Positions 6,255-44,207 of a stretch of 64,000 nt of DNA are shown here, in pieces. The notes below the pieces were generated by a model. It was not told the DNA's origin. It saw only the letters and a list, made by a program, of their open reading frames with translations, and ran no database searches. Position 1 is the first letter of the stretch. Every line of letters begins with the position of its first letter. A program made the translations under genes and the position numbers. The DNA comes from Amoebophrya sp. A120. Its lineage: Eukaryota > Protista > Dinoflagellata. The stretch spans positions 2,072,166 to 2,136,165 of the forward strand of contig CAJINV010000012.1 of NCBI GenBank assembly GCA_905178155.1. The letters run 5' to 3'.

Positions 6255-6322
6255 ACCCTGCAACGAAATCGAACCTGCATGCTGCAGATGTGTTTCGATT
6301 TCTCTCTTGTCGCTGATATCCA
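6255..6322 (+). repeat. 68-bp direct repeat, copy 1 (copy 2 at 7569-7636)
   Basis: ACCCTGCAACGAAATCG...GATATCCA, 3 mismatches between copies. Confidence 0.85.
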
Positions 6323-7413: not shown

Positions 7414-7564
7414 GAAGAACAAGATGCAGGACCTGGGCCACTGCGGCTTGGAGACGAAGATTTCGGCGAAACATGTTTTGTACTTTTTGGATGCAATGAA
7501 GTCACATCAGTACAAAGAGGCTTAATCTGAATCTGTCTTCTTTCAGTTATATTTTCCTCAATAA
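7414..7564 (+). repeat. 151-bp duplicate of window positions 1-151
   Basis: Identical by direct comparison. Confidence 0.9.
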
Positions 7565-7644
7565 TTCCACCCTGCAACGAAATCGAATCTGCATGCTGGA
7601 GATGTGTTTCGATTTCTATCTTGTCGCTGATATCCACTTCATAT

Positions 7645-10600
7645 TCATCGGCTCCTGGAGGATTTCCCAACCAGATCGACGAAGCCAGGCTGGCCCCACG
7701 CATTTTTTTCCACGTTCGCCCTCCAATGATTCTGTGACACAGAAGAAGAGGAGGATTCGTCCTCTTTCATCTCCCTTCTCATCTTCATCTGCAAATGCCC
7801 AGCCCCGAGCGGAAAAAAGCGTCCAAGCTCGAAAAACAGGCGTCCACAGATTTCCGACCGCGGCGCCGAAATCATATTCTTAAACCCGTTCGGAAACACT
7901 GTCAAATGAAAATATCATCTCTGGGTGGTCCTCTGGAAGAAAAATGCAATGTCTACTGTCATGCACATTTTACATGACCCATGAACATGAAGTGTGTAAT
8001 CATTTATGATGCATGCCAAAGCAACATGACATCGGAGTTCTAAGGGCTGTGTCCACAGCAACATGACAGATTTTCTGAGTGCTTCTCGATGCCTATCCTG
8101 CATGAGAAATAATTCCGTCTCCGCCCGCGCGTAGCAAGCGCGGCTGGACTCCCCTTGCTGCTCAAGAAGCAATATTACATCAGATAGTTATAGTTTCAGA
8201 ATCAAAAAGCACCAGCATAGTCTACCAATCAGTATACATAAAAATTTGCGCCCTACAACAAACTTTCAGACCCAGACATCTTTTTATTTGCGCTGCATAA
8301 ACACGCTGTTGCCGCAATGTTCTTGTGTGAAGCTTCTGCCGATTTTCACGAGTTCTGACTTCGGAGGAAGAGTCTCACGGCTTCCGTAGTTCTGAGGGCG
8401 GTTATTTTGTTCGAGTCCAGCACGGGCGGGACCACGAACATCATCTCGAACTCGATCTTCATCGACCCGCTCAACCTCTGTTGCCAACCTCCCAACATAC
8501 GCGTAAAATGGTTCCATCTCAGTCTCCTCTGCGTGCGCGCTGGCCATGGTGACGGTCAAGATGCGATTTTTCGGGATCCTGTAAAACTTGTTCGCCACCG
8601 TCCGCAGACGCATCGTGACCACGGGAAGATTTTCGTTTTTGATCGGTACCAATAAGTCGCCTCTTGTTGTACTATTTATTTCACTGCCTTGCTTAGTGCC
8701 ATTTGATGTCCTCCTCACACCCGCCAGCATCGCTTTCAGCACCGGGAGCAAGTCGGACGGCCTGAATATTTGGTTCCGAGAAACGTCACCAGTGATGTCC
8801 GTCATCTTCATAAAGCCAAAAAGGGCAAGAAAATCTAGCTCATTGTATAGGTAATCGCGAAGCCCGACCCTTTTGCTCACGAGCGGCATTCTTGTTCTTC
8901 GGTCATACAGTTTCTTGCAGGGCAAGAATCCGCTGCAGATTCTTTCCACCAAAGAACTCCCGTCCACGAAATATTTCGTGATTTCAGCCTGCGTTAGCGT
9001 GTCGATGATGTTGCTCGTGGTTTCATCCACACTTCTGTCAAAAACAGGCGAAGTTGAAGATGGTGCCCTCGTGGCTCTACTTGTTGTTCCTGAAATTCTT
9101 CTACTTGCTCTCTCCGCCGCTAAATTCTCGAGTTCGTTTTCCAAAAACGAAACCGCTTTTTCCAATCGGAAAACGGTCGAGTCCCCACATTTCCAGAGGA
9201 TCAAGCGGGACGCGTTGTTCTGCAAAGCTGGAAAAATTGCGGAATTGTCCAAATACGCGCCGTCCATGTAGGAAGCCCATACCGGGGCAGTTTTAGTATT
9301 CACTTTTGCGGTTTGATGTGATGCTGAACCTGGATGATCACCTCCACCTCGCCCAGTGTCAACATTCTTGACCGGCATTCCGATGAGCTGCAACGGTGAG
9401 GAAACGTGTCCGAGAAGATTCGCCGGGGCATTCGTACTAGCCGCGATCGCGTTATGGGAGCGTCAGGATCGAAGTCGATATTAAAGTTGAAAAAAATGTG
9501 ATGCAGAAAATCAATACCAGTTGTGGAAGCCCAGTTTCCAAGTAGCGCACAACAAATTTTGGCACTATATAAATCCAGTCTGTCATGCTGACTTTTTAGG
9601 GAAAGAAGGCGTCTTTTGTCATGCTACTTTAGCAGCTCTATCGCAGACCCCAAACAGGGCGACAGTCGGCCTCGTCACTTGCCATCCCTGCAAGCGAGGC
9701 ACTTCATGCCTTGCAATTTATGCGTGAGAAATTCTTTCAACTTTGTCGATTTCGGTCCTGACGCTTCCATACGCATGCGCGACCGATGGCACGCCAGAGC
9801 GTCTCGTGTTTTTTGCTTCAAACTGTCTGCTTCGGATGAACAAAACGCTCTTCACACGGTCCGCAAAAGTGGAGCGGTAGGTCGAGAAGGTAGAGGAAGT
9901 GTAGGGCTGTTTATCTAGAAGTTGTACTTTGTGCAGGACAGGGCGAGAGCCTGCTGATGTTCTGGGAAACGAATTGTCAAATTCCTCGTCCTCTGGCACG
10001 GACACCGCGAGCCCGTCTCGGTAAAAGGACAACGGCAAACATATTGTAAGGAAAAATATCCCCTCCCCATATTGAAAAGGAAATTTTTTGTGATGCTGAT
10101 TTGTGAGCAGCTTTAATGTCTTGCGTACAAGGCAAACGGCACCCATGACGTGGCGCCTTGTGCAGCGAGTCTGTCAAGCGTTTTCTCCTACCATGTGAGA
10201 CTTGTTTCTCGTGCTCAGCTGCTAGCCAGATGCGTAGTACCAAAATGGGCTTAGAACAATATGCCGACAAGCTCTTTCTGCAGTACAAAACGACCCATTT
10301 GTGTAGTACGCAAGAAATCCAGCAACGCAAATTCATCTTTTGAATACGGGGGGTGTCACTGTCAGGGCTTTTTTCACTTTGATAAAATACCCGTACTTGT
10401 GCAGCGCAGAGTTCTTGGCTGTTAATCTCGGCAGAGATACCAGTTTACTGCTCCATGACCATCTACGGATCCCGGTGACGAGGATCGGTTGCGGAGCGGT
10501 CGCGCCGAGGAGTCTTACTGGTGCGCTGTCCATCAGTGGTGGTGGCTCGAGGTCATAATTTCTTGGCTGCAGCAAATGTTGATTCCAATTGCTTTCCAGC

Positions 10601-13600
10601 GATGCCAATGCTTGTCCTTGCAGAATCCCAGCGGCAAAACTGCTATCAAATGTAAAAGTGTCTGGGTCTGGAAGAATGCAACTTGTCATGCTAGTAAATC
10701 TGAAGCATGCAAAAATCTGTGTTGCGTGATTACCAAAAGTCGTCCAGTTTTGACCAAGTCGGGAGGCAGTTTCTCAAGCGGGATAGGCAGGAGAAAGATC
10801 GCACAGAATCTGTCATGCTAGGTCCTGCATTCCAGACCTCATCGGTCATGGAAAAGCTGCATGACAAGTCGCGCATTCTTCCAGACCCAGACATTTTTAC
10901 ATTTCATAACTGCCCAGTAAACTCGATTTTGACAGGTCGTAGACGGGCGGGCGAGTGAAATTGAAATTGAGATTGATCTGCTCGTCAGCATCATTGATGT
11001 TGTAGAAGTTCTGGTCAGCTCTAGAAGTACTCCCACCTCCAGCGGCCTTAACAGCTGCCGGCGTGGTCGTATTTTTTGCCTCCGCGACGTCTGGTCGAGG
11101 TCGAGCCCCACCTCTTGTTCCAAAGAACAATCTTCGCACCAAGCCTACTCGCGAGGTGGACTTGCGTTCTTTGAGAAGCAATTGGCGCAATTCCGTCACG
11201 GTTAAGCCTCCGGAAAACCGGATCAGCCGCGCGTTGTGCGCGGCACGATTGTTATTGTGTAGTTCTTCTTGTTGAGTGTCAATAGAAGTAGTTGCACCAG
11301 CAACATCTTCGAAGTGGCTGCGTCGTGCTGCGACGTTGTTCCTGCTGTAGCTGTCCTGCCAAGTGGGGTCTTCTTCTTTCACAAGGGCAACATTGCGCAA
11401 AAACTCACGCTCAGCCATGAGAGTGGGCTCCTGGTGCGGCAGTGGATCATAATTATATGGATTTTCACGTAGTAGACCGCCGGCGTGGTCTACATCTTCA
11501 CCGTGCAGTTGTAGTTTGTCTGCAGGAGGAGGAAAATTCCCCTGATCTTCCAACCGAATCTTATGCAATGCAAATATGTCATCCTCTGGGCGGTCTGAAA
11601 TCCTATGCAAGATTTGCCATGCTTGTCTGGCACGACCCTGAGGTCTGTGATGCACACACACACACACGAACAGCCCCTGCTCTTGCCTGTTATGTTGCAA
11701 AAACGCCATTTATTCTTATTGCCAGGCGGAATACGAAACACGTAGCAGGAGCTGAAAAATGTTGCCATGCGTGACTGCCCACTCCAGGAGCTGCGCGCCC
11801 TTCAATCGCAGACTTGCATTATACAGTTTTCCAGATCCAGACATATTTGTATTTGATAACTCTCGGCCCCGTACAAAAGCTTCGCCACGGTCCAGGACCC
11901 ACCCGAAGAACCAGTCAGGTACTATCCTATGTAAGAACGTCCCCACGAGGACCCCACAGTTGTCAAGTTGGAAACTCAGCAACGCAATAAATCCAGAAGT
12001 AGTTTTGGGCGTTACGCATGACAGATTTTGCGCTGTACTATTGTGTTGCAGGTTAGCTGCAAGGACAGCCGCATCACAAAGAAATCCATCTTCCACCTAT
12101 CGTGCTGTTTATGTACTACAGCACTACAATTGCGGCCAATAAAGAACGACTGTGAACGCCTCGCAAGAACATTGGGATGCGTATTACAAGTGTTCCTGGT
12201 CGTCCTCCGATTGGCGATTGCAAATTATCTGCATGACGAACAACTCTGGGAGGGCTATGGACCACGTCTTTGTTGAGGATAGGTACTCGGGCCACTTCCC
12301 TTCGATAGTGGAGTTGACAGCAGCACGACGAGGACCAGCACCACCGGTATTGTTTACATCATTGTCGTCGTCTTCAACTTCTCCACCACTGCCACTAGCC
12401 AGCGTGGTGAACAAAGCCTGAGCAAACCCGATCCCGGTTAAGTGCATCCGATACCCGCCGCCAGCAATACAGACGGCCGTAATTGGGTGCGGTTCGCCCT
12501 GATACAGGAGTTTGAAAGAAGTGTTTATTGTCCTTGTTGTTTTGGCGCGAGCAGTAGTAGTCCCACTGTCATCAACATCAACACCCGAAGATGTTGAAGT
12601 CGTCACCAACTGCACCTCTTCATCTGCGGCAAACGGCTCGGTTGTGCCGGTAAGGGTCAGATACTGGTGTGCAGCAAAACTACCTGCCACAGGAGGTGGA
12701 GGCTCGGCAACTCCACGTGGTCCCCCAGATTTTATGTCATCAACAAGCGGGGGTGGACTCGCTCGGTACACGTATTCGTACCGGAAAGTAACCACGGAGG
12801 AGGAAGTCCACAGAAAAGACGAATCTACTTCTCGTACTCGTTCCGCGGCCGATAATGTTGAAGATCGCGCCCCCACATCATGATCCAGCTGATCTAGTTG
12901 ACTTATAACTTGGCAACCTGTCAGCTTCACGTCTTGCTCCATGAGTACTTCTACCTTTGATTTCGTCATATTATGGTCCTCGTCGTGCACATCGTGCAGC
13001 ACAACTGTCTGCACTGGCACATTCTGGATACGTGCGTGGTAGAAGAGCGGAGGTTCTTCGTCATCTTCTTCTTCTTGTTCAAAATGATCTACCTCGCCTT
13101 CATCAACAAGAAACGTGGCGCGGCGTTCGCCATCACTTCGACTTCTGTCGTTGTTCAATTCTCTCCTTTATGCATTGCAAAAGTATCGTGCTCGTAGTAA
13201 GTGTTGCAATACAAGTTAGCTCAGCATGACAAATGGAATTTCTCATGCTGATTTAGCTTGAAGAAGAAATTTGTCTTGCATGACTGCGATTAGTACCAGT
13301 ACGATACTTGTTTTGCACAGGATATCCTTCTTTATAGGCTCTCGGAAATTCATGTGAGAGTCCATTTCTGAAAATTTAAAATTCGCAAACTTCGAAACCC
13401 TCTGCGAATCTTATAACACGCGCCCAAAACCCGGCCCCGGCGAACCCCATTCAGCTTCCAAAGTCAACAAGGCCCCGAAAAGGGGGCTTCGAGAACTCTG
13501 AAAGATACGCGCCGTTTTTCTTCCAGAACTCTGGAGCTTCTCTTTTGTGGACTTCGAACAAGCCGGCCCTCGATCCGGAGCCGCTTGATCCCCGAACGCC

Positions 13601-16600
13601 GAGGTTGGCTCCATTGCCTAGTCCATGAGGTGCCCACCACGGCTTTGAGGTTCCGAAGCCAACAAATTCGACACACATGAATTTCTCAGGCTCTGAAAGA
13701 AAAACGGCGTCTTTCTTTCAGAGCCTGAGAAATTCATGTGTGTAAATGTTGAGCCAATCCCCTTCCATCAAAAGGGCGGCTGGTCGCCGGCCGTCTGGGC
13801 TGGCTTGATTGCCAGCTCCGGATCACGGCGGCCAAAGGTTCAATCTTTTCAAGTAATCAAATCTGACACACATGAATTTCTCAGGCTCTAAAAGAAAAAC
13901 GGCGTTTTTCTTCTAGAGCATGAGAAATTCATGTGTGTAAATGTTGAGCCAATCCCCTTCCATCAAAAGGGCGGCTGGTCGCCGGCCGTCTGGGCTGGCT
14001 TGATTGCCAGCTCCGGATCACGGCGGCCAAAGGTTCAACTTTTTCAACAAATCGAATTTGACACACATGAATTTCTCAGGCTTTAAAAGAAAAACGGCGT
14101 TTTTCTTCTACAGCCTGAGAAATTCATGTGTGTAAATGTTGAACCAATCCGCTTTCGCCAACAAGGCGGTTGGTCGCCGACCGTCGGGGCTGGCTTGATT
14201 GCCAGCTCCGGATCACGGCGGCCAAAGGTTGAACTTTTTGAAGAAATCGAATTTGACACACATGAATTTCTCAGGCTCTAAAAGAAAAACGCCGCTTTTC
14301 TTTTAGAGCCTGAGAAATTCAAGTGTGTAAATGCCTTTCGCCGGCCCCCGGCTGGTGAAAATCCCCATTGGTAACTGAAACATTTTTCAGCTACCAATGG
14401 GGATTTTCACCACTCGGTGAGTGGCGAAAGCGCTTTCGCCACTCACCGAGTGGCGAAAATCCCCATTGGTAACTGAAAAGCTTTTCAGTTACCAATGAGG
14501 ATTTTCACCTCTAGGTGAGAGGCGACAGCGCTTTCGCCTCTCACCTAGAGGTGAAAATGCCCATTGTAAACTGAAAATCTATTCGCCACTGACGAAGGCG
14601 ACTCCTCCTGGTGGAAATTAATTCAAGTGTGAAAATTTGTTGGGGCTGTTATTGGTCTCGAAAAACGAGTCGCTTTCAGCACTCTTTTTTTTGCTACCCC
14701 CGATGGGTAACAATTCAAGTGTGAAAATTTAAAAGAGTCACTGGAACGACTCACTGCAATGACTCTTTCAATAGAGTCTCAACTATTTCTCTTCATAATT
14801 AAATTTACGCACTTGAATTTACTGTCTTTTAAATTTACGCACTTGAATTTGTTGCCAATGGCAATAAATTCAAGTGCGTAAATTTAAAAGACTCCTTCGA
14901 AGGAGTCCTTGCAAGGAGTCCCTGCCTGGACTCATTGCAAGGTGTAGCCGGAAGAGTCGAACGCAAATCCAAAACGAAAACGATTCATCCCCAACAATTT
15001 GCACTAGCGCCAGCAGATGTCCCAACTACCTCCTCCCCCAACCCCCGCTACCTCCCCTGGGGCCCGAGCCTTCTCCTTCCCAACCCGGACCACCTCCTCT
15101 ACAAGTTCAGCCGCCTACTCCCGGAGCCAGGTCTTCTCCTGTGGGCCCCGGCCCCCTTCACGCGGAACCCAGACCACTTCTTCCACAGCCCAAGCGCCCT
15201 CATCCGGAGCCTGGACCCCCTCCTTCCAAACCTCCGCCACATTCTTCGGAACCCAGGCGCCCCTCGTCCCAACCCGGAAACGGCCCCGGCCCTCCCGCTG
15301 CTTTCTTCTAAATGGCCAGACCCGAGGCGCTTCAGCTTTGAAGGCAAAGCCCATCGCCCCCTTCTGAGCTGAGGCCGCTCAACCCTTGCAGACCTACCTG
15401 CCCCAGAGGCCGAAGCGGGAGGAGCCTGCCTATGCTGGCATCCACGTGGGGCCGTGTCATTTGTCTCGCCTCGAGCCACCTCGCAGTCGGGGGCGGGTTT
15501 TACAAAAATGGCCGGAGTTGAGGCGCTTCACTTCACGAAGGGCAACCAGCTTGCCGAACCACGGCGAAGGCGCTCAGCTTTGTTGGCTTTGCTTGTCCAC
15601 GGCCCGAAACCTCTTGCGCCCTGGCCTATGCGAAGCCGGGCGCGGACCTAATGCCCTTCCTTTTCCGAGCTGGCCCTAGCGTGGCGCCACATCGACGACG
15701 ACTTAAAACACCCCACAAGAGAATGCCTGGAGGGCGCCGGAAGGAGGGCTCGGGCAGCCACCTTCCGGCAAAGCCTTGCAGCTACACACCGCGAGGGGAC
15801 CACAGAGCGCACCCCCTGAAAACCGGAGCCGGGCCCCTCACTATTCAGAACATGCCCTAAAGTGGTTCGCAACGCACTCCACTCAGCTGGTTTCTTAGCC
15901 ACAATCTTCATAGTGCCAGTGCCGATCGTGAATGCTTGCCGTCTGTAGAGGTGTCGCTCTGCCACTCAGAGGGGCGAACTACAGACGCTCCCGGCGGCCA
16001 GAACCCCTATGCCCTGCCCCCAAATCGCGGCCCCCGATGGCCGACAAAACCGCCGAAAACCGAAAACACGCAGAGCCACCAAACTGAGCCGAAACACCTA
16101 AGACCGAGAAACACAAGCCGGCGACCAGTGCAACTGCTCCAGTTTTTTCTTCGGGCAAAGGCCCCAACGTGGGCGGCAGGCCTGTGCCCGGGCGACGACC
16201 ACAACAGAGCAGGATGCCAGGAGTGAGGTCATAACCCAGAGGGCCGAAGCGCTTAACGTGCGAAATAAAAAGCGCGGCGCCGGCGCTGCCGTCGCTACTT
16301 CTTGCAGAACTGTAGCGGTTCGACTCTGGCAGCAGCTCCGTGGCTGGGCAACTTGCACAAGCAAAGGAGGCGCGCAATGTTTTGCCATTGGCGCTATTCG
16401 AAAACTGCGAAATTTAAATTTTCGAACATGGTACTAGACATGAATTTCTCTGAGCCCATATTCTTGTTCCAGCACCCGAGGCCGGGTTGTAAAAGTTCAC
16501 ACGTTATCAAGTGCAAATATGTCTGGGTCTGGAATAAACTTGTGATGCATGTGAGTGAACAGAAAGCGCGCTGTAATGCACCGCCAAGCATGACAGATTT

Positions 16601-17035
16601 TCTCGTGCTGGCACTGTGTTGCGTATTCCGCATGAGAAACATGGTTTTTGCATGACAGACAAGAGGAGGTGGTCTTCCGATGGCCCTACGCAATACAGAG
16701 TTCTGAGTCATGCCAAACTAGCATGAGAAATCTTGCAATCTTCCAGACCCAGACATATTTGCCATGCATACACGTGCGCAGAGCTCGGCAAAGGTCAGTG
16801 GTGGAGCTGAGCTGCGAGAAGAAACTTCATCTTCCTTCACCTTCAGAGCTGACGCTGACCGAGAAAAAACTTCGTCTTCCTTTACCTTCAGAGCGGCCAC
16901 AGCACACCAGGCCCAGCCTGCCGTTCCGTAGGACCGCTTAATTATCTGCAGATTATCCAGGACGTCGGTCAGGAAGCCCTGCAAGAGCAGCAGAGCGCAG
17001 CTCAGGAACTGCCGCTGCTGGTGGGAAAAGAACAT
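7645..17035 (-). CDS. cPLA2/lysophospholipase (patatin-fold) phospholipase, paralogue 1, with N-terminal hydrophobic signal; interrupted by 9 elements
   Basis: Reconstructed splice gives AVCIAGGGYR (oxyanion loop), YLTGSSGGSW (GxSGG nucleophile) and YMDGAYLDN (catalytic Asp); collinear with 18767-24106. Confidence 0.75.
7900..8299. mobile_element. Introner-like element, family A (degenerate)
   Basis: DR AACAC/AACAC; removal joins CGNSV|FPNGF as in paralogue 2. Confidence 0.8.
9453..9771. mobile_element. Introner-like element, family H
   Basis: TIR TATGGGAGCGTCAGGATCGAAGTCGA; DR CGCGT/CGCAT. Confidence 0.85.
10042..10384. mobile_element. Introner-like element, family E (degenerate)
   Basis: DR AAACA/AAATA; removal gives HKYGY|LPLSFYR, matching paralogue 2. 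Confidence 0.8.
10644..10908. mobile_element. Introner-like element, family A
   Basis: TIR TATCAAATGTAAAAGTGTCTGGGTCTGGAAG; DR ACTGC/ACTGC. Confidence 0.9.
11562..11858. mobile_element. Introner-like element, family A (degenerate)
   Basis: DR AATCT/ACTCT; same codon position as family B element 21937-22088 in paralogue 2. Confidence 0.8.
11923..12281. mobile_element. Introner-like element, family F
   Basis: TATCCTATGTAAGAACGTCCCCAC...GAGGATA; DR GGTAC/GGTAC. Confidence 0.85.
13169..13324. mobile_element. Introner-like element, family B
   Basis: TIR TATGCATTGCAAAAGTATCG; DR TCCTT/TCCTT. Confidence 0.9.
13670..14330. repeat. 195-bp tandem repeat (units start 13670, 13865, 14060, 14255), each with an approximately 73-bp hairpin
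   Basis: ACACACATGAATTTCTCAGGCTCT...AGAGCCTGAGAAATTCATGTGTGT repeated. Confidence 0.9.
14354..14580. repeat. Array of alternating palindromes (about 98-bp period)
   Basis: GGTGAAAATCCCCATTGG...CCAATGGGGATTTTCACC alternates with ACTCGGTGAGTGGCGAAAGC|GCTTTCGCCACTCACCGAGT. Confidence 0.9.
16505..16770. mobile_element. Introner-like element, family A
   Basis: Family A TIRs; DR CACGT/CACGT. Confidence 0.9.
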
Positions 17036-18766
17036 TTTGATGATACGAAATTGTACTTCTGCCGCCTCTTATTTCCAAGGCCAGCAGCTTACAACATTAG
17101 TTTTCAAGTGCTGGTATATATGAGAGTGGTCCAGGAGTGTGCTGGACGTGGTAGAAGAAGAACAAAAGTGAGCAGGAAGGACGGTCTAAAAAGGTAACTT
17201 CGAGTCGTTCAGATTGCAATCAAAATCATCAGTGCGGTTTACTATGGATTGGTGGCGAAGCTGTTGGTGCTCTTGTGGGGAAGTCGTTCTAAGTCTAATA
17301 CCTTCGCGCAGTACGTATTGCATTCTTGAAATTTACTTTATTGTGTCGACCACCTGTACTAGTAAGGACCGATTGTTTACCTTCGACTCCATGCGGTCGC
17401 GGGAACCGAAACTTCTGCGACAAAAAATCACCTCCTGGTTGTGGTTATTTTCTACCTCGAAGCTGCTAGGCTTCTCGTACGATTTTTCTGTTCTTGCGGC
17501 ACCTTCTATCTTCGGACAGAGGACACTTCTACACCGATGCGGGCAATTGAAGATTAACAACTGCATTTTTCATTGACAAAAAGAAAAAAGCTCTTTATTT
17601 CCGACTGACAAACCGAAACTATGCCGACAGCTGGTGCAAACTCCTGTTCTTATGCCTGGCATCTTCGTTCAACTTCAATGGAAACAAGCCATGCAAGAAT
17701 TATACGGCCCGATACTCGTACGCAGCATAAAATGCGACACAAAGTGTGCCTGTATTGCAGAAGACGCAAGGGAGGCAGATTGTAGTGCTGTGAAGATGAG
17801 GGCTGAGATCATGGCGCATCAAGCAATTTTCTGAACTCAAACAAGACACGGACACGAATTGTCACAGTAGAGGTCGACAACTATGTTGAGATCTGGCAGT
17901 CTTTCATCTACTGCTGGCTTTCCTCGCGGCGTGCTTTGTTCTGTAGTACACAAGAAGATCCTTTACCATGAAATCATTATGCATGTAGAAGTCTCTAGGT
18001 GATGAAAATATACATGTTTTTTTTTCCTGGCAGTGGAAGCAGTCACGACACGCTGTGGACGAGAGCGAGAGTTCGGGGAATAGTTGTACTGTAGGGTAAA
18101 AAAATCACTTATCGTCAAAGAATACCGGGGTGGTCGGGTACACGTCGCCAAGACAGGGTGTAAACGGTCTACTTGTATTTGGTAATGGTAAATATGACTA
18201 AAGACTACGATGGACACCGCCTATTTTAGTACTCGTCAGCTTTTGACTAGCAAATCAAACTCAACGGAAAGGGCAGCTAGATATGTCCCCTGTCTTCCTG
18301 GTGAAGCGCATCAACCGTCCAATGCAATTTATGCATTGGTTATTTCGCATTCGCTACAGGAGTGTTCGCCAAATACAAATTGATGAAACAACAGATTTCT
18401 ACTGATGAAAAAAGCAAATGCTTTATAGGTCTCTTCTATTTCAAGTGCTCTACTAAATATCCTCATGCAACGCTTCGATTTCGTATCTTCATCTCTTTCA
18501 ATAATTTTTTCTATCGGTGATTTTGTCAAACGAGTTTTTTTCTCGGAATTATCCTACAAAGCAGATATAGCTGCAAAATCCTACAACTGAAACCTTTTTT
18601 GTATGATCATTAAAAATCAAAATTATCCAGGCATAAGAAAAGAAAATATACTTACTTATTTTGCAAAAAATCTTACATCCAGCGAGTTCGCACGCATTTG
18701 TTGAAAAGAGAGCTGCAGCTGGCGCACCATGCTGGAGATGTATAAATCAATTTCTATCTGTCCAAT

Positions 18767-21700
18767 TCACTCTCGTCCACCCCTGGAGGTCCTCTGCACC
18801 AGATCCACGAAGCCAGGCTGGCCCCACGCATTTTTTGCCACGTTCGCCCTCCAGTGATTCTGCCACACAGAAGAAGACGAGGACTTGTCGTCGTCTTTCA
18901 TCCCGTCCCTTTTCATTTTCATCTGCAAATGCCCGTCCCCGAGCGGAAAAAAGCGTCCAAGCTCGAAGTACAGGCGTCCACAGATTTCCGACCGCGGCTC
19001 CGAAACCATCGACCAAAACCCATTGGGAAAAACCCTGCTGCCGCAATGTTTTTGTGTGAAGGCCTTGCCGATTTTGGCGAGGTCTGATATTAATCCTCGC
19101 CGAGAAGTTGTAGCCCTCGAAGTGCCAGCATCAACTTCACGCACCAACCTCCCAACATACGCGTAAAATGCCTCCATCTCCGCCTCCTCTGCGTGCGCGC
19201 TGGCAAAGGTGACGGTCAAGATGCGGTTTTTCGGGATTTTGTAAAACTTGTTTGCCACCGTCCGCAGACGCATTGTGACGACGGGGAGTTTTTCGTTTTT
19301 GATCGGTACAGAAGAACCGCCTGTACCAAAATCATTTTCACTATCACTGCCTTGATGTTTGATATTCCTTTTCACACCCGCCAGCATGGCTTTCAGCACC
19401 GGCAGCAAGTCGGACGGCTTGAAAATTTGGCTCCGCCTCAGGTCAAAGGTGGTACTGTCCGTCTTCATGAAGCCAAAGAGGGAAAGGAAATCGAGCTCAT
19501 TGAAGAGGTAATCGCGAAGCACCAACGACTTTCTCCCGTCCACGAAATGCTTCGTGATTTCACCTTGCGTCAGCGTGTCGATGATGTTGCGAGCGCTTGA
19601 AGTTGATATTTCTTCATCACTATCGAAATAAACAGGCGGAGTTGATGTCCTCCTGTCTCTACTTCCAGAAGTAGTTCTTCTCCTTCTTTCCGCCGCTAAA
19701 CTCTCGAGTTCGTTTTCCAAAAACGAAACCGCTTTTTCCAATTGGAAAACCGTTGACTCCCCGCATTTCCAAAGGATCAGGCGGGATGCGTTGTTTTGCA
19801 AAGCAGGAAAAATTGCGGAATTGTCCAAGTACGCCCCGTCCATGTAGGAAGCCCATACCGGTGCAGTCCCTACTTTTGCGGCTTGTGATGCTGAAACTGC
19901 ATGATCACGACGTCGTCCACCAGTCGTGTCCTCATTCTTGAGCGGCATTCGGACGAGCTGCAACGGTGAGAAAAAGTGTCCGCCAACATTCCCCGGGCCA
20001 TTCGTACTAGCCGCGACCGCGTGGGCAACCGAGGGCACGCCGGGACGTCGCGTTTTTGTCTCTTGAAAATGCCTGCTCTATCAACTGTAAAAATGTCTGG
20101 GTCTGGAAGAATCCAACTTGTCACGCTGATTTTGGATTCTAAAAAAATCTGCATTGCATGAGCAGCAAAGAGAGTCCAAGTTTTGCTACACGGGAAGAGC
20201 CTTTGTCATGCGGTATAGGCATCAGGAAGCCCTCACAAAATCTGTGACGCTAGGGCATGCATCACAGACATCAGGAGTCATGCAAAATGTGCATGACAAG
20301 CCTGGCAATCTTCCAGACCCAGACATTTTTACATTTGATATGCTCCGGAAAAGCAAAACGCTTTTCACACGGTCGGAGAAGTTGGAGCGGTAGGTGGCGA
20401 AGTTCGAGGAAGTGTAGGGCTGCTTATCTACAAGAACTTCGTGTCGGAGTCGGACAGGACGACACGAGCCTGCTCCTCCGGAGGGACACGAATTAAAATT
20501 ATCGAACGCCTTGTCTTCTGGCACGGACACCGCGAAACCGTCTCGGTAGAAGGAAAGCAGCAAATATCTGTACTTGTGCAGCACGGAGTTCTTTGCCGTC
20601 GCTCGTTGCCATCCTATGCAACAAGAAAGAAACTGTGTAAATGAAAATGTCTGTGATGCAAGAAATGCATAACTGTATACGCTTGTCATGCTGGGTGTGC
20701 ATCATAGGCAACTTTCATACGTGTTTCCACGTGCTAGCTGCGCATGACAGGTTCTCCCTGTACTGCAAAGCGAATTTGTGATGCTGTTCTTCCTACAAAG
20801 TTACACTTACACAGTTTTTTTCCTGGATACATCCCTTGCTCCATTTACCGATCGAGGTGACGATGATCGGCTGCGTATCCTGTGTAAAAACATCCCCACC
20901 CCGACCCCAGAGTCAAGATGGGGATTTTGCAACACAAACCTGAAAGTTTTGGGAGCCACGCATGACAAGTTGCAGGCTGTAGTGTAATGCCGTTTCGCAA
21001 GGGAAGGCGCATAACAAATCCTTCTCCTTATCCTGTTGACAGCATTACAACTTCCAAAACACGATGGGAAATGCCTCTCATGGGGATGCGCATTATAAAT
21101 GCTCTTGTGCTTGCAGATCTGCATGACAACTCTGGTGTGGGTACGTTTTTACTCAGGATACTGCGGAGCGGTGGCGCCGAGGAGTTTGACGGGTGCGGTG
21201 TCTATCAGTGGCTCAAGGTCGTTTTCATCGTAATTAGTATCATTATTCCTTGTCTGCAGCAAATGTCGATTCCAATTCCTTTCCACCTTTGCCAGTGCTT
21301 GGCCCTGCAGAATCCCAGCGGCGAAGGTGCCCATTAAATTCGACTTCGATAGGTCGTAGACAGGAGGCAGAGTGGAATCGATTTCGGCCGCGGCGGGGCC
21401 CGTATTCTCAAGAGCATCAGGGATGATGATGTTGTTCTCGTCATCTGTAGTACTCTCGTCCACTCCAGCGGCCTCAACAACTCGCGAGGTAGTTTTATTT
21501 GCCCCGCCCGGGTCGTCTGAAGATCGACGCCCTCTTCCCAATGAAAATCTTCGCACCACGCCTAGTAATCGTGAAGACTTGCGTGTTTTGGAAAGCAATT
21601 GGCGCAATTCCGTCACGGTTAAGCCTCCGAAAAACCTGATCAGCATCGCGTTGCGCGCCGCACGGTTGTGATTGTGTAGTTCGTGAGTGTCAATGGAAGT

Positions 21701-41486: not shown

Positions 41487-42299
41487 TTTAATTATTTATG
41501 AAGCTGAAACTGATTTATGAGAATTCTTGGGGACAACGACAAGTACAAGTAGTTGGATGTTGTCGTGCTACATAATAAAGTTCGAGTATAGATGAAAATG
41601 GGCTCTAATGACAATGAGTAGTAGATCTACTACGCAAGAAGAAAAGTCTTCTTGCTAAAGAAAAGCCGGGAGATATGTTGAGAGTCGCTGAGTAAATAGC
41701 TGCGTTTTAGTTTTACTTGTTCTTTGCACCATGATCTATTTGAAAGTCAAAGTAGCACCAGCAGGTGCGATCATATCCTTGCCGAGTCACCAGTATTAAA
41801 AAAGTAACTCTCGTATACTTTCAGTGAGCTCATCTTCAATATCGCCCACCTTTAGTAGAAGCATTGAACTTGTTACGAGATACTTCTTTGGCTGATCACG
41901 TAAAATAATATCATCTGGACTACTTAGGACTAGATAGATTTAAGGCCGTGAAGCTCGAATACAGATCGTGAGACTTGAACTTGTTGTTCTGAAGATCATC
42001 TACTACGTTTTTCTGAACTCCTGAGCAGCCAGGCGAACCGACGACGGTATGCACCTCCAGGCAGCACAACTGCACTACCCCTGAAGGAGAAGCTTGCTCG
42101 ATGTTGATCTAGGTCCTTGCGCTGCTTGCTCCTGGAAGTGTAACTTGTATCGACCACCTCGCTTCACGACAACAAGTAGAACAACAACGAACCATTGGCA
42201 ATATGGTCCGAGGATGCTGAGAGACAGACGACGCCCGCCGTCCGAAGCTGCAGAGCGAAACAATTTCTGTTCGCCGTTTCTCGTCGGTCGACAGTAGCT

Positions 42300-43690
42300 A
42301 GCACCATAAGAGTGGGCCACGGGGGACAAGGGTGGGTGAATGACAAGGAAAGCGACATACTATTGCAGGAGCAGCCACACACAGGGGCTGCATTAAGGCC
42401 CACACCGCATGGCCATGAGTATGCTTGCTTGATCCATTCACAGAGCTTCGCAGCCGTACCCGGGCGGGCGGCGCGGACATACAACGCCGGCCAAGCGGCC
42501 CCTGAAATGACGGGCGCCATGGATCATGCAGTTGTTGCTTGGCTTGCCAGGCTTGGCACTGCCCGGGCCCGGCGCGGCGGGGGCCCAACCGCAAGCATGC
42601 AAAACAAAGGAGGGGGCCGCCACATGCAAAGGCACTAGAGCAGGGCCACCCCTGGGGCCCCCCGCGCTGTCGATCAACCGCCACAACGGGCGACCGAGGG
42701 CGCAAGGGGCGGGGCGGGAGGTGACAGGCCCGGCGGCCGGGCGGGTAGACAGACAGAGAGACAGACGGCGAGCGGCGCCGGCCCCCGCCGTGTCGCTCGT
42801 CGTGTTGTGAGTGTATGGCTCACCGCGGTCGCCCGGCCCACCGAAAGGGCTCGCCCCCTTCAAATCGCGACGCCAGGAGCCCAGCCCGCGGAGGTTTTTG
42901 ATCTCGCGGCCGCGCGCGCCCCGCCCAAGCGGCGCAGTTGGTACGTCGCGAGCACCACCCCCCCCCCCCCCCCGGCCGGGCCGCAAGCGCCAGGGCGAAC
43001 GGGCCGGGCGCCCCCCTGCCGTGCAACGCCGCCCGCGCCCCCGCGTCCGGCCCGCGAATTTGGCGGCATATTTACGGGGCCCCCACCAGCGCCAAGGGAA
43101 GGGGGAACCGGCCCCGACCGCCCTCCGAGGCTGGCAATGTCGCGCGATGGCCCCAAGCTATACCCTGGGCGGCGGCTTTTCCAGATCGCGCGCGCCACCC
43201 TCTCCCGTCCCCGCCCGCGCCCAGCAGGGGCCTCCGCCCCCTGGGCGCGCTGTCTGCGCAATACTTCTCGCACATGCTGCGGAGCAAATATCTGGCATCA
43301 ACCTTCCGTCACCCTGTAAGTGGCAGAAGAAACACGCCAAACTTCCAGCCGGACAACTGCGCCGAGGAAATGTCTCACGCGCCAACGAGTCAACTTCTAT
43401 GCGAAGAGTCGGAAGTCCCGGCATCGCAAACAATTGCCCAGCCCGGGGGCTGCCGAACCTGCCGGAAAACGAAAAACGGCGCCGCAGGCGTGCGCTCCCC
43501 TCACAAAGACCACAGAGGCCCCGCAGGGCGGGCGCGACGCTCCTGAAGGCTTCCGGCGAAGGGCCGCGCGCGCGGCGCTTGCTGACTCCAAGGAACGAAG
43601 GGCGAGCTTCATTCTGCCGACCCTTATACACCAAAAGGGCGGATTCGGATACAGAAGGATACAATAAACAACCGGGGCGAACAACCTTCC
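42300..43690. repeat. Very GC-rich island, probable interspersed repeat or mobile element remnant
   Basis: Sharp GC rise, poly-C run near 42958-42973, ORFs in all six frames without a recognisable domain; boundaries approximate. Confidence 0.4.
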
Positions 43691-44207
43691 TCGTCTCCCT
43701 CTTGTGGGCGCAGAAATTTCAAGAAGCGTCTTCATTTGATGCACTTCGTTTTGATATGTCTTCTACCTTCCACGACGGCACGTCGCCAGTGCTGCCTTTT
43801 CCAGGGCACCAAAATCCATTCTGCGAAAAAGTCGCCAAGCATTTACAAGCCAAAATTTGCATTTGCTTGGTAGTTCCATCCAATTTATTTCAGCAGGCCT
43901 GAGTAATATCCGCAGTCGGAGTCTATGAACAAAAAAACGCAGGAAAACAGAACGTCATAAAGTCATCCTGTTCAGCACAGAAGACAATCTAATGAAAAAC
44001 AGAAATCGTATTCGTACAAGAAATCATACTAGTAGCAAAGAGCTCATCCAGGGCATAAATGAAATAAGCGTATGTAACTAGTAAGAGCTGTGACCGGAAT
44101 CGCCTGCCATCAATAAATAACATCGAGGCCACAAATACTCAACTCGATCCGCCACTGCGCCCGGGTAATTGAGTCGTGTCAGTCTACACTACAACTGTGC
44201 TCCACCA

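Follow-up and report, generated by a model that had tools for sequence, protein, structure and literature searches.

A 3.1-kb non-autonomous inverted-repeat transposon, likely removed as a non-canonical intron from a gene of Amoebophrya sp. A120

The introners of the marine parasitic dinoflagellate Amoebophrya sp. A120 start with TAT, have inverted ends and direct repeats of 3–5 nt, and are non-GT-AG (PMC7789003). According to the same source, the A120 genome contains tens of thousands of non-GT-AG introns, no U1 small nuclear RNA was detected, and no transposase was found in the genome. The intron analysis was confined to 40–1000 bp, and the longest annotated intron is 35,152 bp (PMC7789003). 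In Gozashti 2025 (PMC12130899, Dataset S2), 58 A120 families are listed, and introners of 0.8–1.6 kb and an integrase-like lead are already catalogued. The family fam38 is 808 bp long, is noted as 'Ginger; 5-bp TSD, TA/TA Termini' (TSD, target-site duplication), and has open reading frames (ORFs) with Copia/Gypsy homology; fam103 is about 1.2 kb; fam86 is 1619 bp with a terminal inverted repeat (TIR) of 84 and simple repeats; and fam200 occupies about 2470 alignment columns (PMC12130899). Here we describe a 3128-bp element (the giant element) within the gene of the public model P0001. It lies in the window, a 64,000-nucleotide stretch of the A120 contig CAJINV010000012.1. The giant element is quite probably a TIR transposon of 3.1 kb without a detectable gene and with near-identical copies elsewhere, which likely was inserted into a coding exon recently and likely is excised as one large non-canonical intron.

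The features of the locus are summarized in Table 1. An earlier reading of the DNA letters alone (the sequence-only reading) had proposed a length of 3128 bp, TAT...ATA ends, ungapped TIRs with 47 of 64 identical positions, and the direct repeat TTCTT; all of these were confirmed at 13333–16460. The second-best inverted match to the left TIR arm in the whole window is only 35/64 (mean 16.2, standard deviation 3.6). The termini of the giant element follow the pattern TATRGGCTC...GAAATTCATGT. Its interior was said to consist of hairpin arrays followed by a GC-rich block in which no transposase was recognized, and this description also holds: the arrays are repeated 3.4 and 2.4 times, and the Pfam search was null. 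No Rfam match was obtained anywhere in the window. At 14357, 14454, 14464 and 14858, contigs of the DNA run X1 match interior hairpin pieces and then diverge, which suggests that other elements share the interior hairpin modules of the giant element.

Table 1. Coordinates of the giant element, its parts and its host locus in the window.
Feature	Position	Strand	Remarks
Giant element	13333..16460	.	3128-bp non-autonomous TIR element, TAT...ATA, multi-copy
Left TIR	13333..13396	+	Intron 3' end on the host transcript; 47/64 against right TIR, ungapped
Right TIR	16397..16460	-	Intron 5' end on the host transcript; a collapsed 931-nt DNA contig stops at 16460
Left TSD copy TTCTT	13328..13332	.	2 nt in common with the right TSD of the adjoining short introner
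Right TSD copy TTCTT	16461..16465	.	Exact duplicate of the left TSD
195-bp tandem array, 3.4 repeats (92% matches)	13663..14333	.	Hairpins of paired GC[AC]TGAGAAATTCA[TA]GTG cores, 8 cores
98-bp palindromic array, 2.4 repeats	14353..14584	.	
Short hairpins bearing AATTCAAGTG core versions, 5 sites	14600..14940	.	
GC-rich block, no detectable coding signal	14960..16340	.	63% GC at 15001-16000
Short introner, 156 bp	13169..13324	.	TSD TCCTT at 13164-13168 and 13325-13329; leaves the mature form together with the giant element
8-nt spacer between short introner and giant element	13325..13332	-	Net 3-nt exon if each is cut separately
38-nt upstream exon	16461..16498	-	Between the giant element and introner 16505-16770; seen in X3 contig 9
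Host gene, public model P0001 (CAD7965139.1, 1270 aa)	7648..17035	-	8 gaps including one of 3294 nt
Tandem paralogue P0002 plus unannotated N-terminal part, without the element	18770..24106	-	

A set of short elements for comparison was obtained by scanning the window for TA[TC]...[AG]TA pairs. The scan gave 58 candidate rows, 36 of which are shorter than 400 nt. A 5-bp direct repeat was found in 35 of these 36 pairs, and these 35 (spanning 135–326 nt) serve as the reference set; the single pair with a 4-bp repeat was set aside. The other 22 rows are the giant element and 21 pairs of 1.3–7.9 kb that resemble cross-pairings or chance. The giant element has the features by which introners are recognized, namely inverted ends starting with TAT, a direct repeat within 3–5 nt, likely non-GT-AG removal and genomic repetition. 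The end grammar that it was claimed to share with the short introners stands as to TAT...ATA and the 5-bp direct repeat, but it does not extend to the A-run. The A-run of the giant element occupies positions 14–16; that of the short set occupies positions 11–13, where A is found at 63, 65 and 68 of 70 ends. Both ends of the giant element read TAT + 10 nt + AAA, which departs from the introner consensus TAT + 7 nt + AAA. Thus, the giant element is a distinct family within the introner class.

The core AAATTCATGTG occurs 15 times in the giant element with two mismatches or fewer, with one occurrence per TIR and the other 13 in the interior. The short-family string GCATKACAAA had been reported as lacking from the giant element, which was thought to use a core of its own. 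The exact string is indeed absent (none of the 76 window matches lies inside), but the supposed separate core is itself a version of the short-family motif. The variant GC[AC]TGAGAAA occurs eight times in the giant element, each running directly into its core, and GCATGACAAATTCATGT or a one-letter variant is present at three sites outside the giant element. These results indicate that the giant core and the short-family motif are one motif. The repeated array cores are likely transposase-binding sites.

In the DNA run X1, the contigs of the giant element are identical to the window and have depths of 437.5, 483.9 and 452.6, and five unique flanking contigs show depths of 39–45. The resulting ratio of 10–11 is an estimate, as contig depth is not true copy number. 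Two contigs behind 16460 and two behind 16461 go on into foreign flanks, giving at least four other right flanks; among the matches listed for foreign flanks, none belongs to the left end. A terminal-pattern scan over metagenome contigs gave one match, the locus L004, which is identical to 13333–13680 at 347 of 348 positions. The L004 copy begins at the identical TAT in a different, intergenic flank, and runs off the contig end. In an estuary metagenome from a different study, identical interior pieces of 364, 226, 213 and 79 nt were found. In viral contigs, the 18-nt TIR pattern gave three chance matches, none beyond 21 nt, and the terminal pattern gave no match. The giant element is a young, multi-copy, dispersed TIR transposon with copies 99.7–100% identical, and it is probably still active. 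It shows what characterizes a non-autonomous TIR DNA transposon: TIRs, a TSD (in this copy only), sharp-ended dispersed copies, and no transposase. Two further observations concern these flanks. The two-contig consensus behind 16460 starts with AAGAC, compatible with the L004 flank AATTC, a weak hint that was not used as evidence. An intron-free 1747-codon frame (L004:2181-7424, minus strand) adjoins this second element copy, whose site lies about 0.6 kb upstream; the product is Thr/Ser-rich and likely membrane-anchored.

Diverged relatives were also detected. In the likely RNA runs X3 and X9, relatives 92–98% identical to the giant element are present at 13391–13634 and 15101–15957, and some of them have 3-nt gaps and foreign continuations. 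These relatives are a possible lead to a longer or autonomous partner. Variant letters were also seen at 15560–15600 in an X1 contig whose depth is that of single-copy DNA.

The anatomy of TIRs and TSD implies insertion by a trans-acting transposase with a 5-bp staggered cut. The longest stop-to-stop ORF in the giant element has 179 aa, and Pfam matched none of 16 ORFs. With frames read through stops, none of 12 queries matched, and a 13th (39 aa) gave only an unrelated match (E = 0.1). One frame was compared with 1.84 billion protein representatives without a match, and two ORFs gave no match in a homologue search; the large protein libraries were queried with three of the six frames of the GC-rich block, two of these in part. 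The 20 variant sites from relatives show synonymous excess in no frame, and stops are not significantly depleted (P = 0.18). Two strings in the GC-rich block, 'PWTSKANKAER' (integrase-like) and 'GFLATIFIVP' (reverse transcriptase-like), had been picked out by eye, and Pfam supported neither. No encoded transposase, integrase or recombinase was thus detected, and the giant element is non-autonomous and not the master element. The sequence-only reading had suggested that it may point to the master element; this is not supported, as the frames tested contain no trace of a transposase and no autonomous relative was found. It is very improbable that the giant element is itself an autonomous master element, maybe lightly damaged, with a transposase in the GC-rich block. 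The length of 3.1 kb and the 64-bp TIRs lie within the Ginger range (PMC2836005), and the diverged relatives of the GC-rich block in likely RNA runs, with their 3-nt gaps, would agree with such an element, but the short ORFs, the lack of a transposase match in Pfam and the large protein libraries for the frames tested, and the results on variant sites and stop depletion all argue against it.

The evidence that the mature transcript lacks the giant element comes from contig 9 of run X3 (3804 nt, depth 195.8). This contig shows no differences from the window in the three listed exon pieces, and has the joints 16498|16770, 13166|16461, 11916|12281 and 11556|11859, of which all but 13166|16461 are gaps of neighbouring introners. 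X3 is RNA by the guess of the tool, and among the runs listed with matches none is recorded as RNA; the contig and read comparisons took in seven of 12 runs, namely X1, X3, X4 and X8 to X11. The X3 depth is zero at 17409–17600, where DNA contigs continue, and the DNA run X1 has no contig with the joint 13166|16461. The skip of 3294 nt at this joint corresponds to 156+5+3128+5, that is, the short introner, the giant element and one TSD of each. The product agrees with that predicted for removal in two steps and has an open frame. The same joint lies within P0001, where residues 101 and 102 are separated by a gap of 3294 nt, and A120 gene models are derived from transcript alignments (PMC7789003). 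GT-AG is found at none of the equivalent cut positions. Removal of the element with one direct repeat had been claimed to give an open frame. The frame is open, but the peptide quoted for it also requires removal of the introner 13169–13324. Over 6.6 kb, a single read matched in each of X10 and X11, two runs of raw RNA, which is too few to weigh either way. As the likely transcript lacks the giant element precisely, multi-kb inserts are likely tolerated by the A120 removal process, in agreement with the sequence-only reading. Its view of the giant element as a large non-autonomous relative of the introner class was likewise borne out, by this transcript and by the other copies.

A transcript without the element might arise with no splicing at all, if its source (a strain or some cells) did not carry the insert or if the element were excised precisely at the DNA level. 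The element is young, and presence/absence polymorphism is plausible. X3 contains 92–95% relatives where the X1 contigs list no such letters, and rare variants are lost from contigs. However, the exon pieces of X3 are identical to the window, and the transcript-based public model, which sits on the element-bearing scaffold, reads across the element. In addition, the joint is absent from the X1 contigs, and the X3 variant letters at 13366 and 13390 are also present in X4, which is from the same sample as X1. Absence of splicing is improbable. Still less credible is an assembly artefact that placed a collapsed repeat wrongly within the gene. Hairpins and repeats abound in the interior, and no contig among those listed bridges the junctions, but the 5-bp duplication is exact on both sides, both ends coincide with boundaries found independently at other sites, and removal together with one duplication restores the frame.

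The cut register was deduced from another introner of the host gene. The introner 11557–11863 has an imperfect TSD (AATCT/ACTCT), and the likely transcript retains the upstream copy (one case). According to this result, the cuts are located at TAT (0 or -1) and 4–5 nt after ATA. With this register, the giant element and its 156-bp neighbour would have to be excised one by one, with a 3-nt exon between them. Introners with imperfect TSDs, such as 11557–11863, could map the splice register genome-wide. The minimum free energy (MFE) structure of 13140–16500, a 3361-nt pre-mRNA, shows the TIRs paired end to end with 49 cognate pairs and the spacer unpaired. The TIR duplex has -60.7 kcal/mol, against about -26 kcal/mol for two internal competitors. 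From this folding, TIR pairing is predicted to be the excision signal.

The two introns could instead leave as one composite intron of 3294 nt (13167/13169–16460/16462) with the 3-nt exon skipped. The product would be letter-for-letter identical owing to the overlapping TSDs, the public model has a single 3294-nt gap, and no single-element joint is present among the joints listed in X3. On the other hand, the composite intron needs a 3' cut 0–2 nt past ATA, and the imperfect repeat at 11557–11863 gives 4–5 nt. Furthermore, the non-cognate ends pair at -8.9 kcal/mol against -27.5 kcal/mol, and the MFE structure pairs the two ends of the giant element with each other. The composite intron is considered unlikely.

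The course of events may be pictured in five steps. The first is the spread of the transposon, seen here in the TIRs, the 5-bp duplication, the further insertion sites and the near-identical copies. In the second step, for which the odds appear evenly balanced, an integrase-like DDE transposase would act in trans on TA..TA ends of the IS3EU/GingerRoot type with a 5-bp staggered cut, and would bind the repeated motif GC[AC]TGA[CG]AAATT common to the giant element and the short introners. In the third step, seen in one likely RNA contig and in the public model, the mature message is without the element and one TSD copy, so that the original frame is restored. In the fourth step, which is somewhat favoured as a prediction, the 64-nt TIRs would pair end to end and bring the cut sites together whatever the length of the interior, with cuts at TAT (0 or -1) and 4–5 nt past ATA. 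In the fifth step, the giant element and the 156-bp introner would, rather probably, be removed successively around the 3-nt exon.

A bolder picture may also be drawn, which as a whole is doubtful. A120 would remove introns by end pairing independent of length, using a TIR stem and a 5-nt duplication and no splice-site sequence. An active 3-kb transposon would thereby become a harmless intron, and even a 3-nt exon would be resolved. The mobilizer would represent an undescribed integrase-like superfamily with 5-bp TSDs and TAT ends, and its autonomous member would be the diverged transcribed relative in the RNA contigs.

Several points weigh against transposition and splicing as described above. 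The RNA joint is found in one contig of one run, the RNA status of which is guessed. The gene model may use the same RNA data, and P0001 is therefore not necessarily independent of X3. In a second comparison, with an 8-nt left flank, no joint is present among the matches listed in X4, X9 and X8, nor is the 38-nt exon among those listed in X4 or X9. Contigs carry no measure of splicing efficiency, and among the DNA contigs listed none spans the element plus the flanks of this locus. As for the pairing, the first 30 nt of the giant element pair at -27.5 kcal/mol, weaker than the short-element median of -33.4 (n = 35), and an MFE structure of 3.4 kb disregards co-transcriptional folding. The 5-bp TSD is known from this copy alone, as none of the other loci obtained includes both ends. 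Without a transposase, the second step is argued from the termini and TSD only, and a TSD of 5 bp does not fit IS3EU/GingerRoot, where it is usually 6 bp.

The host gene looks functional, because the ratio of nonsynonymous to synonymous substitution rates (dN/dS) between the paralogues is 0.41 (658 codons). In a homologue search with the exon 12283–13164, P0001 of Amoebophrya sp. A120 was found at 100% identity, together with the tandem paralogue P0002. Paralogue 2 had been said to lack the element. Its frame does run without interruption at 22760–24145, but divergence at the insertion site is too great for its use as an exact empty site. Both host proteins (7648–17035 and 18770–24106, minus strand) have a hydrophobic N-terminus and the motifs GGG[YF]R, G[SV]SGG[SA]W and DG. 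These motifs resemble those of patatin/cPLA2-type lipases; the host proteins have no Pfam or PDB match. At 23164–24106 (minus strand), an open frame extends upstream of the late P0002 start and aligns to the P0001 N-terminus, and the public P0002 model is likely truncated. The paralogue introners at 11562–11858 (297 bp) and 21937–22088 (152 bp) fall in the same alignment column but belong to different families; they have the target ACTCT in common (one paralogue 1 copy is AATCT). Either a hotspot received insertions in parallel, or one element has replaced another. The remaining mapped gaps, seven and five in the two paralogues, fall in different columns.

Other features of the window are as follows. 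An intergenic GC-rich block (59–64% GC) at 42200–43700 contains overlapping open frames of up to 363 aa; it lacks long TIRs and matches neither Pfam nor Rfam. Downstream of neighbouring genes, 151 bp are identical between 1–151 and 7414–7564, and 68 bp are 96% identical between 6255–6322 and 7569–7636; these repeats may stem from duplication of 3' regions or from a small mobile element. A near-perfect intergenic palindrome of 62 nt is located at 63411–63472 among other short inverted repeats, and may be part of another element extending beyond the window end.

The giant element extends the introner size range, and is a good test substrate for the unexplained splicing of A120. Removal likely copes with a 3-kb distance between the ends and with an adjacent 3-nt exon, and this speaks for end pairing rather than for intron definition over a short range. 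As the giant element is young, is also intergenic and is present in a wild metagenome, it links the short introners to a TIR transposon of ordinary kind that is probably still active. Excision products (lariat or circle), intermediates and presence/absence polymorphism can be assayed readily thanks to its unique sequence and its size, in contrast to the repetitive families of 150–300 bp, and its TIR and core motif can be used as baits for the autonomous partner.

The closest described elements are the introners of the same genome (Farhat 2021, PMC7789003). They have the same TAT start, inverted ends, 3–5-nt repeat and non-GT-AG ends, and no internal transposase. Their inverted repeats are 8–20 nt and the mean non-canonical intron is 240 nt, whereas the giant element has 64-bp TIRs and 3128 bp; it further differs in the A-run shifted by 3 nt and in its internal hairpin arrays (PMC7789003). 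The families fam38, fam86 and fam200 (PMC12130899) are, like the giant element, intron-forming TIR elements near or above 1 kb with near-identical copies. The termini and the TSD length of fam38 are those of the giant element, in which, however, no Copia/Gypsy-type ORFs were detectable. None of the 58 A120 rows of PMC12130899 is of 3128 bp; the table is without sequences, and the giant element may yet be identical to a listed family, such as fam200. Two TIR strings had no match in 12 of the 14 supplementary files of that paper; its introner sequences, figures and alignments, which lie outside this set, may contain the family. No description of a 3-kb A120 introner was found in the literature searched, which lies apart from subscription papers including Roy et al. 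2023.

Among transposons, IS3EU/GingerRoot elements have TA..TA termini, TIRs, kb size and non-autonomous members, as in the giant element, but their TSD is usually 6 bp and the GingerRoot TIRs are 100–150 bp, in contrast to the 5-bp TSD and lack of a transposase here (PMC10045372, PMC6839031). The giant element agrees with Ginger1 and Ginger2/TDD in a TSD of 4–5 bp. TDD-4 and TDD-5 generate 5-bp TSDs, and the Ginger2/TDD elements, with TIRs of 45–297 bp and lengths of 2.7–6.7 kb, are comparable; the termini of Ginger1 and Ginger2/TDD are, however, TGTNR, whereas the giant element has TAT ends and no integrase was found in it (PMC2836005). In view of the TSD mismatch with IS3EU/GingerRoot and the TGT ends of Ginger2/TDD, it is assigned to neither. 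The nonconventional introns of euglenids resemble the giant element in non-canonical ends, TIR pairing (a prediction for the giant element), TSD-like repeats and lengths of up to thousands of nt, but belong to an unrelated lineage with another terminal motif, and circular excision products are reported there (PMC11282704). Within the known A120 introner class, the giant element is a non-autonomous member of unusual size, spanned by the public model and apparently undescribed as a family.

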